Positions 31,016 to 41,383 of a DNA stretch of 64,000 nt are shown here, piece by piece. The notes under the pieces were generated by a model. That model searched no databases. It was not told the DNA's origin and saw nothing but the letters and a program-made list of their open reading frames with translations. Origin of the DNA: Escherichia coli. GTDB lineage: Bacteria > Pseudomonadota > Gammaproteobacteria > Enterobacterales > Enterobacteriaceae. The position numbers and the translations under genes are program-made. Each line of letters opens with the position of its first letter. Positions within the stretch are counted from its first letter, which is position 1. The stretch lies in the NCBI RefSeq assembly GCF_009931435.1, contig NZ_CP043414.1; one strand, 5' to 3'.

Positions 31016-32422
31016 TTACAGCCGTTCTTGAATAAGTTTGCCTAATTGTTTAACCGCCTGTTCTTCGCGCTCGCCCCACTGCCATGCAGTATTAAAACGA
31101 AAAAAACGTGACCAGTTTGCACCGGTAGAAAACATTTTACCCGGCGCAATACTGATATGATGCGTCAGTGCTGCCAGGCTTAATTCGCCCGCATCTAACG
31201 GCGCGGGGAGTTCCAGCCAGAGAAAATAACCGCTGTCATTATGATGAATTTTCACTTCCGCAGACAGATAACGCAGCAGTGCCTGCCAGGCACGTTGTTT
31301 ACGTTCCGCAAGCTGGCGACGCAGGCGACGAAGATGGGCGTCGTATCGGCGCGTGGAAAGGTAATCCACCAGTGCAAGCTGCATCGGTGAGCTGGTGGAA
31401 AGCGTACTCATCAACTGCAAGCGTTGAATTTTACGTGCATGTTTTCCGGCGGCGACCCAACCAATACGAAAACCAGGCACCAGACATTTCGAAAACGAAG
31501 AGCAATGCAAAACACCATCGTGGCGATCCCACGCTTTCGCAGGCAGCGGTTTTTCCCGTCCAAAATAAAGTTCGCTGTAAACGTCATCTTCAATCAGCGT
31601 TACGTTGTATTGATTGAGCAACGCTACCAGTTGTTCTTTTTTCTGCGGCGTTAAGGTAAAACCGAGCGGATTCTGGCTATTAGTCATCAGCCAGCACGCT
31701 TTCACCGGATACTCCTGCAACGCCAGTTCCAGCGCCTGAAGGTCGATCCCTTCGTTAACGTCCGTCGCCACCGATAACGCCTTCAGCCGTAACCGCTCCA
31801 GCGCCTGCAACGCGCCGTAGAAACAAGGATTCTCTACTATCACCCAATCGCCTGGTTCCGTTACCGCTTGTAAACTGAGGTTTAATGCCTCTAACGCCCC
31901 GGCGGTAATGACAATTTCATCAGGAGAAATAGTGATGCCCTGTAAGGCATAGCGACGAGCAATAGCCTGACGCAGTTCTGCGTTTCCTGGCGGTAAGTTT
32001 TCAATCACGCTCATCGCCGTGGCGGTTTTGCTTACCTGCGCCAGCGAGCGGTTTAGTTGTTGGAGGGGGAAAAGTCGCGGGTCGGGAAAGGCCGAGGCAA
32101 ACGGAACTACCGACGGATCGCGACTGGCCTGCAACATATCAAAAATATAGGTGTTGATATCGACTGCTTCATCTCGAGTGACTGGAATGACTGTCGCTTT
32201 CGGCATTTTTATTGCCTGTGGCGCAACGTAATAACCCGATTGCGGTCGCGCGATAATATATCCCTGACTTTCGAGCAACTGATAGGCATGGCTGACAGTC
32301 ATAAAGCTCATGCCAGAAAGCGCCACCTGGTCACGCAACGAAGGCAAACGATCTCCGGGTTGCCAGATACCCGACGCAATCTGCTCGCGTAATTGTTCTG
32401 CAAGCTGCTGGTATTTTTTCAT
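31016..32422 (-). CDS. ydcR: MocR-type GntR-HTH/aminotransferase-domain fusion regulator
   Basis: 468-aa ORF with an N-terminal GntR HTH and a C-terminal fold-type I PLP domain. Confidence 0.88.
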   Translation of the reverse strand: MKKYQQLAEQLREQIASGIWQPGDRLPSLRDQVALSGMSFMTVSHAYQLLESQGYIIARPQSGYYVAPQAIKMPKATVIPVTRDEAVDINTYIFDMLQASRDPSVVPFASAFPDPRLFPLQQLNRSLAQVSKTATAMSVIENLPPGNAELRQAIARRYALQGITISPDEIVITAGALEALNLSLQAVTEPGDWVIVENPCFYGALQALERLRLKALSVATDVNEGIDLQALELALQEYPVKACWLMTNSQNPLGFTLTPQKKEQLVALLNQYNVTLIEDDVYSELYFGREKPLPAKAWDRHDGVLHCSSFSKCLVPGFRIGWVAAGKHARKIQRLQLMSTLSTSSPMQLALVDYLSTRRYDAHLRRLRRQLAERKQRAWQALLRYLSAEVKIHHNDSGYFLWLELPAPLDAGELSLAALTHHISIAPGKMFSTGANWSRFFRFNTAWQWGEREEQAVKQLGKLIQERL

Positions 32423-32499
32423 TATCGAATCGTTATTATGTGCAGGTGATTCGGCAGTCTATATCAGTTGTTAAAAATGACAACTTTTCATTAACTGTT

Positions 32500-32625
<126 letters not shown>

Positions 32626-32656
32626 TGTACCCACAATAACACGAGGGGGTACAACA

Positions 32657-32827
32657 ATGAACATCGGTAAAGCAATCATCAACTACGCAGCGCGTCGCAA
32701 CATGGACATTACCTGATTGACGATGAGACCGTGGCGTTCTGGGAAGCGGATAACGATTGTGAATGGATGTTCTCCTACATGATTGGTAATGATGGTTTCC
32801 TCCACTTTAAAGGCAATGTGTATCTGC
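32657..32827 (+). pseudogene. 5' part of a small unknown gene, interrupted by the IS element and carrying an internal frame shift
   Basis: Strong SD (ACGAGGGGG) and ATG at 32657 encode MNIGKAIINYAARRNMDIT then a stop; the +2 frame continues ...LIDDETVAFWEADNDCEWMFSYMIGNDGFLHFKGNVYL up to the IS boundary. Confidence 0.5.
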
Positions 32828-32835
32828 TGTAGTGG

Positions 32836-33656
<821 letters not shown>

Positions 33657-33700
33657 GTTGCATACAACGGCAACAGGAAACCGCGCCCTGAGTTTCTCAA

Positions 33701-34012
<312 letters not shown>

Positions 34013-34078
34013 AATGTCACCTGTTTTTGACTATGAGGCGATGATATCACCTCTATTCAGGTGGCCAAATTCAGTGTG

Positions 34079-34265
34079 CCACTACAGTATGGCTAAGATG
34101 GAATCAGAGATTAAATCACTTAAAGCTGATAACGCCGCATTACGAAAGAGTTTAAAACTGATTGATGAGACTAATGCGGTTATGATGGATCATGTATTCC
34201 CTGAGTGGCGAAATGAAACTAAACCTACACAATATAAGAAACCTACACTTCGAGTGGTTGCATAA
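34079..34265 (+). pseudogene. 3' part of the IS-interrupted small gene (coiled-coil tail)
   Basis: The frame continues across the IS: ...GNVYL | RMAKMESEIKSLKADNAALRKSLKLIDETNAVMMDHVFPEWRNETKPTQYKKPTLRVVA*. Confidence 0.45.
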
Positions 34266-34365
34266 AAAAAGGGACTCCGAAGAGTCCCTAGTAAGTTTAG
34301 GTTAGGTTTGCACAACAAAGATGAGGTTATAATGAACATAATGCTACATTATTCTTTAAAGCCAG

Positions 34366-34390
34366 AAAAATAACCGCCCCGAAGGGCGGG
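34366..34390 (-). terminator. Rho-independent terminator-like hairpin (ccgccccgaagggcgg) with a T-run on the minus strand
   Basis: GC stem plus ttatttttct on the minus strand, downstream of the minus-strand small ORFs. Confidence 0.5.
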
Positions 34391-34547
34391 AGGATTAATA
34401 CTCAATCTATACTTGTTATGTTTTTATGTTGTATAGATCACTGACTATGAAAACACTGTACTGGAGTGTGTTTTATGGCTTTTAATCGGGAATCCTCAAA
34501 GAAGATCCCCTGTTAATAACCATAAGGAGAAAAGGCAGATTACACTA

Positions 34548-34721
34548 TTATTTAGCATCCTTTTTACAGCAACTAAAAAGAATAAACAGGATTAAACATC
34601 CCCAGCCGTAAGGTGTACCAATTAGAAATTTGAAAAACACCACCATCGATATAAAAATCAATTTAATGCCAGCGACGATAGTCAAAAACAGCAGAGTAGC
34701 AAAGTAGACAAAAAGATCCAT
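34548..34721 (-). CDS. Small hydrophobic membrane peptide (57 aa)
   Basis: ATG with GAGG 9 nt upstream; MDLFVYFATLLFLTIVAGIKLIFISMVVFFKFLIGTPYGWGCLILFILFSCCKKDAK; below the ORF-track cutoff. Confidence 0.4.
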   Translation of the reverse strand: MDLFVYFATLLFLTIVAGIKLIFISMVVFFKFLIGTPYGWGCLILFILFSCCKKDAK

Positions 34722-34770
34722 AGATAATCCTCTTTGAAAACGACCATCATCTATAGTTCAATTCATCGAT

Positions 34771-34953
34771 TTAATTAATGATACTTGAAAGCGTTACACA
34801 CAGCAGAAATGCCAATATGTGCCATGAATATACGATAGTTAATCCTACAGTAAGACAAATCAAAAATTCAACCATAGGTAAATCCTCAAATAAGAAAAAG
34901 GTTAGCGGGGGGTGATTCCCCCCGTAGACGTTGACCAGCTCAACATCTTTCAT
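34771..34953 (-). CDS. Small hydrophobic peptide (60 aa; internal start would give 34 aa: MVEFLICLTVGLTIVYSWHILAFLLCVTLSSIIN)
   Basis: ORF with a hydrophobic C-terminal segment; the internal ATG has GAGGA upstream. Confidence 0.35.
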   Translation of the reverse strand: MKDVELVNVYGGNHPPLTFFLFEDLPMVEFLICLTVGLTIVYSWHILAFLLCVTLSSIIN

Positions 34954-34973
34954 ACATTTATTTATAACGCGTT

Positions 34974-35540
34974 TTAAGACACATCAAATTCATCGTCTTC
35001 TTCTGGTTCTTGTTCCGGTTCATCCATTAATGGTAATTCTTCTTCCTCGTCTTCTCCCAAATCAGCATTTTCGAACAAGTCCCCTACTTCATTTAAACGA
35101 AGCTCGATGATCTCCCTTAGCTTATTCTTCAATGTTTTCTGATCAGTGGCGGATTCTAAAATTTCTAGGGCATCGATTGTGGCGATCTGCAAGATAGTCT
35201 GCTTCACCTTCCCACAATATTCAGCTAGTTCCTGTTCTACATACCCGACCGGAATCAGGAGATTCATTGCTTCCTGGTTCTCTCGTTCGGCTGCATCTGC
35301 TAATGCTCTCTCACGGCGTAATTTCTCTACGTCGATTTGTTCCTTGATAGAAGTTTCTTTAAGCGGGTTAATGATGTTCTTCAAGACCCAATCACACCCA
35401 GGCTTCGCCGGGACACGTCTTGTATTTGTGTTATAAGGTAGACCCCTTTCTAACCATTTCTTAGCGGCGTTAATTGTATAGCCGTATAAGCGGGAAATTT
35501 CTGTAAGGGTTAATTCTTCTTTCATCCGGTTATCCTCCAT
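34974..35540 (-). CDS. Phage terminase small-subunit (lambda Nu1)-like HTH protein with acidic C-terminal tail
   Basis: 188 aa; N-terminal HTH-like LTLTEISRLYGYTINAAKKWLERGLPY, central EKLRRE coiled-coil segment, C-terminal DEEEELPLMDEPEQEPEEDDEFDVS; resembles the Nu1/TerS layout. Confidence 0.6.
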   Translation of the reverse strand: MEDNRMKEELTLTEISRLYGYTINAAKKWLERGLPYNTNTRRVPAKPGCDWVLKNIINPLKETSIKEQIDVEKLRRERALADAAERENQEAMNLLIPVGYVEQELAEYCGKVKQTILQIATIDALEILESATDQKTLKNKLREIIELRLNEVGDLFENADLGEDEEEELPLMDEPEQEPEEDDEFDVS

Positions 35541-35886
35541 TAAATTTGCGTAAAATTATTTATCTGATCTACGCATTCAGGAGAGCGCCTAAAACGCTTT
35601 CTAACGACATGAAAGATCTAGGCGTGGAAAGGAATTGGCGGGTGTTAATAGTCGCGTAGCGACCGCGCTGGTGGGCTGCACTGCACCTGTTTTGAAATCT
35701 CACACGCACATCAAATACCGGGGTGCCGAAAACTCCCTTTATTTCATCCGCGGAACAGTACCTTTTTAATTTGTCAAGCATTAATTTCTTAATTTAATTA
35801 CTAAATCTCACCCCAATAATTGAAAAAATATCAAAAATCAATAAAGTAAGCATCTAAAAGTCAGTCCATACCAAAAGAGGTATAAA

Positions 35887-36666
35887 ATGAAAAACATTAT
35901 CGCTGCTATCGTGCTTTCTGCTACTGCTTTCGGTGCTGATGCTGCGTCCTTTGATTGCACTAAGGCTATAACCAAATCAGAGAAGTTTATTTGTGCTAAT
36001 GAGTCAATCTCCGCACTGGATTCTAAACTTCATGAAGTATATGTTAAGGCTGTTAAGATTGATCCGTCTCTTAAACAAGAGCAACGCAACTGGAATAAAA
36101 CTGTTCGTGATACAATGATCAATATCGGGCAGATTCAGCCACTGGAGGCTGTATACAACGCTCAAATCCAAAACTTGATGAATGTATTATCTAAAGAAGA
36201 AACCGCGTCAGAGAGCGTTACAGATGATTCTGCAAAGGTTGAAGAAGAACAACCGAAACAGGAAGAAGTAAAGAAACTGAATGTTACCGCGATTTACGCA
36301 TGTACTGCAAAATTTACATGGAAAGTTATCGATGGTGAGGAAACAGAAGCTGTAAAAGATTACTTATACGGAAACAAAGATCATGATGATAAAGGCGGTA
36401 AACTTAAAATCAAACTGGTAGATGATGTTCCTGTGTATTTTGTTTACACCGACAAATATAACGTTTATAAATCACCACTCAAACCAGCTAAAGAAAATCC
36501 AAACGCAATGGAGGGTAAATCCAAACAGGATACTATTGGACGTGTTAACACTTATAACATCTGGGTAAGCAAAAAAGGTGACATGCGTCTTGAAGTTATT
36601 GAACCAAAATATGATTCTGAATATAAACACACTCAATTTGCATGTGACATGGTAGACGCAGAGTAA
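35887..36666 (+). CDS. Secreted protein with N-terminal DUF1311 (LprI-like) domain and unknown C-terminal domain
   Basis: Signal peptide MKNIIAAIVLSATAFGADA; FDCTKAITKSEKFICANESISALDSKLHEVY matches the DUF1311 N-terminal pattern; AT-rich. Confidence 0.65.
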   Translation: MKNIIAAIVLSATAFGADAASFDCTKAITKSEKFICANESISALDSKLHEVYVKAVKIDPSLKQEQRNWNKTVRDTMINIGQIQPLEAVYNAQIQNLMNVLSKEETASESVTDDSAKVEEEQPKQEEVKKLNVTAIYACTAKFTWKVIDGEETEAVKDYLYGNKDHDDKGGKLKIKLVDDVPVYFVYTDKYNVYKSPLKPAKENPNAMEGKSKQDTIGRVNTYNIWVSKKGDMRLEVIEPKYDSEYKHTQFACDMVDAE

Positions 36667-36925
36667 GAGGTGAAATGATGCAATTCAATAGCATGAAGAT
36701 TACTCAAAAATGGTGGGATGCGATGAAAGCTAACCACCAGAACGATATTAATTAAGTAACATTTTAGATATACAGCACCCAGCTAACAGATCACCTTTTA
36801 TGGATTTCATTATAACCCCTTTGATCTGGAAACTATGTTAATTAGTTGATTTCTAAGCCTTGTCCTTGTGATGGGGCTTTTTATTGCAAAATTTTTAGTT
36901 ATTTTGGGTTGACTACATTCGGGTT

Positions 36926-37046
36926 GCCAATTCGCCTGGCTAACTCTTGCTGAGTGATTTCTGACTGTAAAAAAGCATTTAACAGCAATACCTTAGAGGC
37001 GACGCTCAAAGGCACTTCAATAAAGTGATCGTGACTATTTAATGGC
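36926..37046 (-). pseudogene. hicB: hicB antitoxin internal fragment (about codons 59-98)
   Basis: Reverse translation NSHDHFIEVPLSVASKVLLLNAFLQSEITQQELARRIG, then divergence (NPNVVNPK*); stop codons upstream, no N-terminal region. Confidence 0.65.
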
Positions 37047-37226
37047 GAAGTTTACCTCCGTGTGTAATGTGCTCGAAAATAGCACTAAATCGCCGCAACG
37101 GCAGAATGCAATGCAAAATCAGGAAGGAAGATTCCAGAATTTCTTTGCGCTAATTTGCAAAACTGAATAATAACCTCAAGAAACGATCGGCATCATAGCG
37201 GCAAAAGGTCAGAAAAAGGTGGCGGG

Positions 37227-37457
37227 ATGTTTTCGAAGGCGTTATCGGTTGTCTTATTAACGTGTGCACTGTTCTCAGGACAACTCATGGCAGGGCACAA
37301 AGGACATGAATTTATGTGGGTAAAGAATGTGGATCATCAGCTGCGTCATGAAGCGGACAGCGATGAATTGCGTGCCGTGGCGGAAGAGTCGGCGGAAGGT
37401 TTGCGCGAGCATTTTTACTGGCAAAAATCGCGCAAACCAGAAGCAGGACAGCATTGA
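37227..37457 (+). CDS. yncJ: Small secreted protein YncJ (DUF2554)
   Basis: 76-aa ORF with signal peptide MFSKALSVVLLTCALFSGQLMA. Confidence 0.8.
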   Translation: MFSKALSVVLLTCALFSGQLMAGHKGHEFMWVKNVDHQLRHEADSDELRAVAEESAEGLREHFYWQKSRKPEAGQH

Positions 37458-40210: not shown

Positions 40211-41383
40211 ATGCGTCTGTTTTCTATTCCTCCACCCACGCTACTGGCGGGGTTTCTGGCGGTATTAATTGGCTACGCCAGTTCAGCGGCAATAATCTGG
40301 CAAGCAGCGATTGTCGCCGGAGCCACCACTGCACAAATCTCTGGCTGGATGACGGCGCTGGGGCTGGCAATGGGCGTCAGTACGCTGGCTCTGACATTAT
40401 GGTATCGCGTACCTGTTCTCACCGCATGGTCAACGCCTGGCGCGGCTTTGTTGGTCACCGGATTACAGGGACTAACACTTAACGAAGCCATCGGCGTTTT
40501 TATTGTCACCAACGCGTTAATAGTCCTCTGCGGCATAACGGGACTCTTTGCTCGTCTGATGCGCATTATTCCGCACTCGCTTGCGGCGGCAATGCTTGCC
40601 GGGATTTTATTACGCTTTGGTTTACAGGCGTTTGCCAGTCTGGATGGTCAGTTTACGTTATGCGGTAGTATGTTGCTGGCGTGGCTGGCGACAAAAACTT
40701 ATGCGCCGCGTTATGCGGTAATTGCGGCGATGATAGTTGGCATCGTAATCGTTATTTTACAAGGTGACGTTGTCACAGGGGATATTGCCTTTAAACCCGT
40801 TCTCCCCGCTTATATTGCCCCTGAATTTTCGTTTGCTCACAGTCTGAGCGTTGCACTCCCCCTTTTTCTGGTGACGATGGCATCGCAAAACGCACCGGGT
40901 ATTGCGGCAATGAAAGCGGCCGGGTATTCGGCTCCTGTTTCGCCGTTGATTGTATTTACTGGATTGCTGGCGCTGGTATTTTCCCCTTTCGGGGTTTATT
41001 CCGTTGGTATTGCAGCAATCACCGCGGCTATTTGCCAAAGCCCGGAAGCGCATCCGGATAAAGATCAACGTTGGCTGGCAGCTGCCGTCGCAGGCGTTGT
41101 TTATTTGTTTGCAGGTCTGTTTGGTAGCGCCATAACTGGAATGATGGCCGCGCTGCCCGTGAGTTGGATCCAGATGCTGGCAGGTCTGGCGCTGTTGAGT
41201 ACCATTGGCGGCAGTTTGTATCAGGCGCTGCATAATGAGCGTGAGCGAGACGCGGCGGTGGTGGCATTTCTGGTAACGGCAAGTGGATTGACGCTGGTCG
41301 GGATTGGTTCTGCGTTCTGGGGATTAATTGCCGGAGGCGTTTGTTACGTGGTGTTGAATTTAATCGCTGACAGAAACCGATAA
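40211..41383 (+). CDS. ydcO: BenE-family transporter
   Basis: Polytopic membrane ORF; start set at the ATG at 40211. Confidence 0.82.
   Translation: MRLFSIPPPTLLAGFLAVLIGYASSAAIIWQAAIVAGATTAQISGWMTALGLAMGVSTLALTLWYRVPVLTAWSTPGAALLVTGLQGLTLNEAIGVFIVTNALIVLCGITGLFARLMRIIPHSLAAAMLAGILLRFGLQAFASLDGQFTLCGSMLLAWLATKTYAPRYAVIAAMIVGIVIVILQGDVVTGDIAFKPVLPAYIAPEFSFAHSLSVALPLFLVTMASQNAPGIAAMKAAGYSAPVSPLIVFTGLLALVFSPFGVYSVGIAAITAAICQSPEAHPDKDQRWLAAAVAGVVYLFAGLFGSAITGMMAALPVSWIQMLAGLALLSTIGGSLYQALHNERERDAAVVAFLVTASGLTLVGIGSAFWGLIAGGVCYVVLNLIADRNR

Follow-up and report, generated by a model that had tools for sequence, protein, structure and literature searches.

The closest described counterparts of the gene considered here are the small terminase subunit of phage lambda and the packaging-redirection proteins of phage satellites. 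In the lambda terminase, the C-terminal portion of the small subunit (TerS) binds the large subunit, TerL (PMC6739421 and work cited there). The Rpp proteins are 144-153 aa long, dimerise, are encoded inside PICIs and act only as heterocomplexes with the TerS of the helper (PMC6739421). The 64-kb stretch of Escherichia coli DNA analysed in the present study (hereafter, the window) carries a TerS-like gene that an initial annotation had described as isolated and had likened to the redirection genes of satellites or, alternatively, to a prophage relic. Herein, we propose that this gene is very probably the terS of a temperate cos-type phage that integrates in hicB, and that it was stranded in a small remnant of its prophage by an IS-associated deletion of 32.8 kb.

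Extent, layout and family of the protein

The open reading frame of 188 aa first reported at 34974..35540 on the minus strand is present in the sequence; however, the true start is most likely at 35525 rather than 35540, as judged from three features of the sequence that agree with each other. First, all of the aligned homologues from E. coli, Salmonella and Proteus (29 of 29) start at the equivalent of M6. Second, a GGAGGA Shine-Dalgarno sequence is located 7 nt 5' of the M6 ATG. Third, the RefSeq annotation is also 34974..35525, with 183 aa. We refer to this gene (34974..35525, minus strand) as terS, an orphaned Nu1-type terminase small subunit gene, on the basis of homologue alignment, PHROGs, profile searches, AlphaFold2 modelling and RefSeq. 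No convincing terS promoter was obtained in a sigma-70 scan.

The AlphaFold2 model of TerS (mean pLDDT 76.7) contains a beta-helix-helix-beta winged helix-turn-helix (HTH) at residues 9-44, a continuous long helix at residues 45-93 that includes EKLRRERALADAAERENQ, and more helices at residues 98-157, followed by an acidic tail at residues 165-185 that is disordered in the model. The Nu1-type layout of N-terminal HTH, coiled-coil and acidic tail proposed in the initial annotation is consequently seen in the model as well. In the homologue alignment, the C-terminal acidic tail is conserved: one F is invariant, and the motif reads EFDVS/EFDLS/EFEVI. Close homologues of TerS number 76 in E. coli, Salmonella and Proteus, and a profile search among 1.8 billion representative proteins returned 216 matches at E<=0.001, mostly of 150-200 aa.

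The proposed assignment to the Nu1-type small terminases was borne out by several searches, in which TerS and Nu1 families were matched. Against PHROGs, TerS matched phrog_57, "terminase small subunit", with an E value of 4.4e-13 over residues 2-173. For the Pfam and PDB tests, 60 of the 216 profile relatives were aligned with the window TerS, and the resulting profile matched the lambda Nu1 chains 6hn7_B (E 1.2e-15) and 1j9i_A (E 3.5e-13), the former alignment running from the HTH into the next helix, through profile position 83; the same profile also matched other TerS DNA-binding domains in the PDB. Among these 60 distant relatives, 20 matched Pfam Phage_Nu1 (PF07471) at E<=0.001 and five matched the related Pfam family DUF1441. 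Moreover, hhalign of the close-family alignment against lambda Nu1 gave a probability of 92.9% and an E value of 3.7e-7 over residues 10-95, with a Nu1 sequence that agrees with the PDB alignments to 6hn7_B and 1j9i_A. In reaching residue 95, the Nu1 alignment takes in the ExxRxxRAxADAxE motif of the oligomerisation helix. In addition, the genes at locus L013 are in the canonical order: that of a relative with 33% identity (P0082) overlaps the 5' end of a gpA-type terL, and a portal gene comes next.

Direct searches with the window TerS itself were less informative. No significant match was obtained to any Pfam model, including Phage_Nu1, or to any NCBIfam model; the PADLOC scan gave nothing significant, with a weak HTH match to mad1 (E 0.005); phmmer of the single sequence against the PDB returned spurious epimerase matches only; searches for similar folds with the complete model gave no information; and tblastn against 50,697 phage records gave no match. 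Family membership is therefore based on the PHROGs match and on transitive and profile evidence and not on a direct Pfam or NCBIfam match. On this sequence evidence, we place the window protein in the lambda Nu1 small-terminase superfamily, as a diverged member, and a family that is almost always annotated as "hypothetical protein" can be named Nu1-type small terminase.

Deletion architecture at the hicB locus

The gene order at the window locus is ydcR, hicB', an IS3-family element, terS, an LprI-family gene, 'hicB', yncJ and rlhA, and the annotated neighbours for approximately 19-22 kb on each side of the remnant are core E. coli genes. The window was compared by blastn with a reference prophage from E. 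coli 2014EL-1346-6 (locus L003). On the left side, a 3' fragment of hicB (32501..32620, minus strand; RefSeq) is the half of the disrupted attachment gene that lies at attL, and the attL junction falls at approximately 32610-32620, with a core resembling TTGCC when attL and attR are compared. This fragment is followed by the remnant of the prophage left end (32621..32827, plus strand), which holds the first approximately 57 codons of a 90-aa phrog_6147 gene as identified by blastn, tblastn and PHROGs. Positions 32301-32827 of the window correspond to L003 1125-1652, the left junction of the prophage, with 96.4% identity. On the right side, blastn and tblastn detected the 3' part of a prophage gene for 80 aa that the deletion had truncated (34097..34265, plus strand; 88% over 58 aa in tblastn), and positions 34097-37050 correspond to L003 34414-37371, the right end of the prophage, with 92.9% identity. 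The attR side is represented by an internal fragment of hicB (36920..37048, minus strand; RefSeq, blastn), and the attR junction was placed at approximately 36921-36930 by the comparison of the att sites.

Between these two ends, an IS3-family element of 1259 bp (32828-34086, minus strand), recognised from its repeats and from RefSeq, stands in place of 32.8 kb of the prophage (L003 1653-34413). The element has TG...CA ends, a frameshifted transposase and imperfect inverted terminal repeats of 27 nt (32827-32853 and 34061-34087), and the flanking triplets differ (tgc versus gta), indicating that there is no target-site duplication. The presence of the element at the breakpoint without a target duplication is the signature of an IS-associated deletion. 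The prophage sequence left in the window consists of approximately 0.2 kb of the left end and approximately 2.8 kb of the right end, the latter holding terS, two small membrane ORFs and an LprI-family cargo gene. Accordingly, just four of the 37 proteins of the reference prophage match the 64-kb window, namely the left-end fragment, the 80-aa fragment, TerS and LprI, whereas the other 33, among which are TerL, portal and capsid, have no match in it. In addition, the family terL is absent from the window genome. The isolation of terS noted at the outset, with no terL, portal or capsid gene nearby, is thus confirmed, and it is explained by the IS-associated deletion of approximately 33 kb of its prophage, an event in which the early region was lost together with terL and the recombinase, portal, capsid, tail and lysis genes. 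As all of its partners (terL, portal and capsid) have been lost, the window terS can presumably no longer package, and it is most likely an intact but functionally stranded, inert remnant.

These results bear directly on the reading in which terS encodes a PICI- or SaPI-like TerS, or an Rpp-like protein, that redirects the terminase of a helper to the cos or pac site of an island. Such a role would agree with the separation of terS from terL in the window, with the match of the TerS family profile to RppC (6hlk_A, E 1.7e-8) and with the conserved non-coding block just upstream of terS, which could hold a cos-like site. However, the RppC match does not go beyond the HTH (profile positions 4-51), whereas the Nu1 match continues through position 83, and no integrase, AlpA, primase/replicase or capsid-remodelling genes are present at the locus. 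Furthermore, other strains carry the same terS inside a full prophage of approximately 36 kb at this att site, and its isolation is already accounted for by the mapped deletion. This explanation is largely refuted by synteny, and we consider it extremely unlikely. Of the two origins initially offered, the prophage relic is supported by synteny and by the deletion, while the satellite redirection gene is not, given that PICI genes are missing. A TerS gene standing by itself could have been the sign of a new phage satellite; here it is what a deletion left behind, and that question can largely be closed.

A second deletion, with its junction at 37050, spans 444 bp and has taken away hicA together with the 5'-terminal 180 bp of hicB. 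In strains with the intact prophage, hicA is kept beside a hicB truncated at its C-terminus by the prophage insertion. The hicA toxin gene may have been lost after the disruption of its antitoxin gene, hicB. Between the window and E. coli 2020CK-00188 (RefSeq NZ_ABACVG020000001.1), 21 SNPs were counted in 12.9 kb, at least 17 of which cluster in approximately 160 bp of ydcO (window 41005-41161), a clustering that suggests either recombination over a short tract or that the sequence comes from another, very closely related strain. A further SNP, at 35245, replaces E by G at residue 94 of TerS (numbered on the 183-aa protein), a variable position.

Several small features accompany terS in the right-end remnant. 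Two hairpins resembling intrinsic terminators (34289-34270 and 34389-34374, minus strand) would end the terS transcription unit. Upstream of these, 3' of terS, an unannotated ORF of 57 aa (34548..34721, minus strand), hydrophobic and with two TM-like segments, is conserved in the intact prophages. Its place is taken in Salmonella, in Proteus and in further E. coli variants by different two-TM-like ORFs of 60-94 aa. In E. coli and Salmonella, terS has one or two short hydrophobic ORFs 3' of it, and none of these small ORFs was matched in PHROGs. Directly after terS, an ORF of 60 aa (34771..34953, minus strand), likewise unannotated and hydrophobic, is only partly conserved and contains a G6/C6 hairpin, and its coding status is doubtful. 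On the other side of terS, the cargo gene of the prophage right end (35887..36666, plus strand; RefSeq, PHROGs and tblastn) encodes a secreted protein of the LprI family (DUF1311-type) that matches phrog_14799 with an E value of 3.8e-109 and has 92% amino acid identity to the L003 copy. A segment of the genomes of RB49-like Krischvirus phages (T4-type, lytic) is 91-93% identical in nucleotides to window positions 35881-36751, and the Krischvirus counterpart of the LprI-family gene is annotated as two hypothetical proteins. This similarity suggests a recent exchange of the LprI-family gene between temperate prophage and lytic myoviruses.

The parent prophage lineage, its relics and the upstream block

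An intact prophage of approximately 36 kb was found in hicB in E. coli O6:H16 2014EL-1346-6 (NZ_CP024232), O55:H7 DEC5A (NZ_CP038394) and 14EC017, with homologous terS and LprI genes at its right end. This prophage encodes a 559-aa large serine recombinase as its integrase, an endolysin and tail proteins, a protease-capsid fusion (PHROGs), a Phage_portal_2 portal, a head-tail joining protein and a gpA-type TerL of 635 aa. In every close relative examined, including E. coli variants, Salmonella, Proteus and a metagenomic relative with 36% identity, terS is located 5-8 kb upstream of terL, on the same strand and beside the attachment site, and in the intact prophages it forms a small operon of its own, apart from terL. 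The segment between the two genes consists of divergent small operons, includes a Rha/antirepressor-like gene in most loci and contains an AT-rich unannotated gap of 1.0-1.4 kb in which short repeats occur in tandem, such as one of 22 bp x2.5 at L003 32352-32407. Because no recognisable repressor or replication genes were found elsewhere in the approximately 36-kb prophage, this segment (L003 29000-35300) is probably the early region, and it may be an unusual early/origin region. No phage record among the 50,697 has a match of more than 44% identity to the TerL of the lineage, and the literature search gave nothing specific on a prophage integrating in hicB or on this terS family. The analysis exposes an uncharacterised lineage of temperate phages in E. 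coli, Salmonella and Proteus, with a serine recombinase and, in E. coli, hicB as its target, in which terS is far from terL and for which there is no close sequenced phage relative.

The distance between terS and terL leaves some room for a different role, in which a DNA-binding protein with the Nu1 fold would serve as a recombination directionality factor for the serine recombinase or as a regulator of late or early transcription. The position of terS beside att, in its own operon and 5-8 kb from terL, across E. coli, Salmonella, Proteus and the metagenomic relative would be compatible with such a task, and the HTH fold is common to MerR and excisionase-type proteins. We nevertheless regard this as very unlikely, because the phrog_57 TerS match is full-length, the Nu1 homology does not stop at the HTH but reaches the oligomerisation helix, conservation is also seen in the acidic C-terminal tail, with its invariant F and EFDVS/EFDLS/EFEVI motif, and the homologue P0082 of a related phage overlaps terL. 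In addition, a scan of 20 further proteins encoded by the intact prophage turned up no other TerS candidate.

Among 5426 complete E. coli genomes, terS was found in 63 and the family terL in 55, and the two genes are spaced by 4-14 kb in every genome in which both positions were listed. Eight of the 60 listed terS carriers, the window genome included, lack the family terL. Three of these terL-less carriers were inspected, and each proved to be an independent relic (L015, L016 and L017): the relic of E. coli L73 is associated with IS1 and IS3, that of EC05 is associated with ISKpn26, and that of rl0044 shows a large leftward deletion into ydcR-patD and a cargo gene that differs and is not LprI. 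The terS ORF is therefore intact in at least four independent relics (the window, L73, EC05 and rl0044), and the parallel decay of the hicB prophage in several strains illustrates the erosion of prophages by IS elements. The IS3 deletion of the window was observed in one genome only among the 5426, and on this account it is probably a recent event.

The retention of terS raises the question of whether a prophage end with terS and cargo has been kept by selection. The relic protein might titrate or mis-assemble the terminase of superinfecting relatives, or the adjacent chromosome might be packaged by related phages from the cos-like site upstream of terS. In favour of such exaptation are the intact terS in four independent relics, the retention of the conserved block upstream of terS and the proportion of listed terS carriers without the family terL (8/60). 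However, terS was the query with which the relics were sought, and a relic without it would escape notice; owing to this ascertainment bias, the retention of terS in these relics says nothing about selection. The restriction of the window's deletion to 1 of 5426 genomes also implies a recent event, and the different cargo in rl0044 indicates that there is no constant module beyond terS. The intact terS of the relics fits recent deletion and is also compatible with retention by selection; we consider exaptation quite unlikely, and a recently deleted, inert prophage remnant is the explanation that we prefer.

Upstream of terS, a non-coding block of approximately 250 bp (35526..35785, minus strand) is conserved across genera in the homologue alignments, and the sequence beyond it, away from terS, is variable cargo. 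The block contains an inverted repeat, TGCGTAA-N15-(C/T)TACGCA, at 35547-35575, just before the terS ribosome-binding site, and a GC-rich near-palindrome, GTCGCGTAGCGAC, at 35651-35663. The initial annotation had pointed to the region upstream of terS as a place for a cos-like site; a conserved block with an inverted repeat was indeed found there, but clear R-type repeats were not, as the search upstream of terS for cosB-like R-element repeats gave only short, inconsistent ones. A contig of approximately 37 kb (L018), the end of which was used as a proxy for cos, terminates in the variable cargo region, outside the conserved block, and was uninformative as to the position of cos. A structured RNA leader was also considered and found to be unsupported: RNAalifold gave a weak consensus fold for the block (-12 kcal/mol, with a covariation term of -0.7), and an Rfam scan of 32400-37300 gave no match. 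The block is a possible cos/cosB site or, alternatively, a possible operator or leader.

In the intact hicB prophages, the whole presumed early region sits between terS and terL. It is conceivable, although unlikely, that terS and the candidate cos/cosB block of approximately 250 bp make up a self-contained genome-end module that in relics could affect infecting relatives. If this is true, the relic module might poison or redirect the terminase of infecting relatives, or might be a chromosomal packaging initiation site that mobilises the ydcR-ydcP region.

Comparison with described systems

The window TerS resembles lambda Nu1 in several respects. Both proteins have an N-terminal winged HTH followed by an E-x-L/H-R-x-x-R-A-x-A-D-A-x-E helix, their lengths are similar (183 aa for the window TerS and 181 aa for Nu1), and the partner large subunit in the intact relatives is of the gpA type (GpA_ATPase and GpA_nuclease). 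In the intact phage, the winged HTH of TerS would bind repeats beside the cos cleavage site, the long helix would oligomerise the protein, and the C-terminal helices with the acidic tail ending in EFDVS would recruit a gpA-type TerL, which would nick cos and pump the DNA into the prohead. The assignment of helices 98-157 and the EFDVS tail as the gpA-binding region is suggestive. Despite these likenesses, the window TerS is only approximately 22% identical to Nu1 over 86 aligned columns, does not itself pass the Pfam Phage_Nu1 model and has a strongly acidic, disordered C-terminal tail. The gene order differs as well, since in this lineage terS does not adjoin terL but precedes it by 5-8 kb, and in the window there is no terL at all.

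With the PICI Rpp proteins (RppA/B/C; PDB 6HLK), the window TerS shares a TerS-like HTH domain of the MerR type and the lack of an adjacent terL. However, the similarity ends after the HTH and the Rpp dimerisation domain is not matched, the window TerS keeps a long C-terminal region and an acidic tail that are undescribed for Rpp, and its context is a deleted prophage and not a PICI.

The locus as a whole is best compared with the IS-deleted cryptic prophages of E. coli, from which no essential difference was found, although the parent lineage of the window is without a close sequenced phage. As in those prophages, both att-flanking ends have been kept at the attachment gene, the interior has been exchanged for an IS element without target duplication, the essential morphogenesis genes are gone, and decay has proceeded in parallel and independently in other strains.
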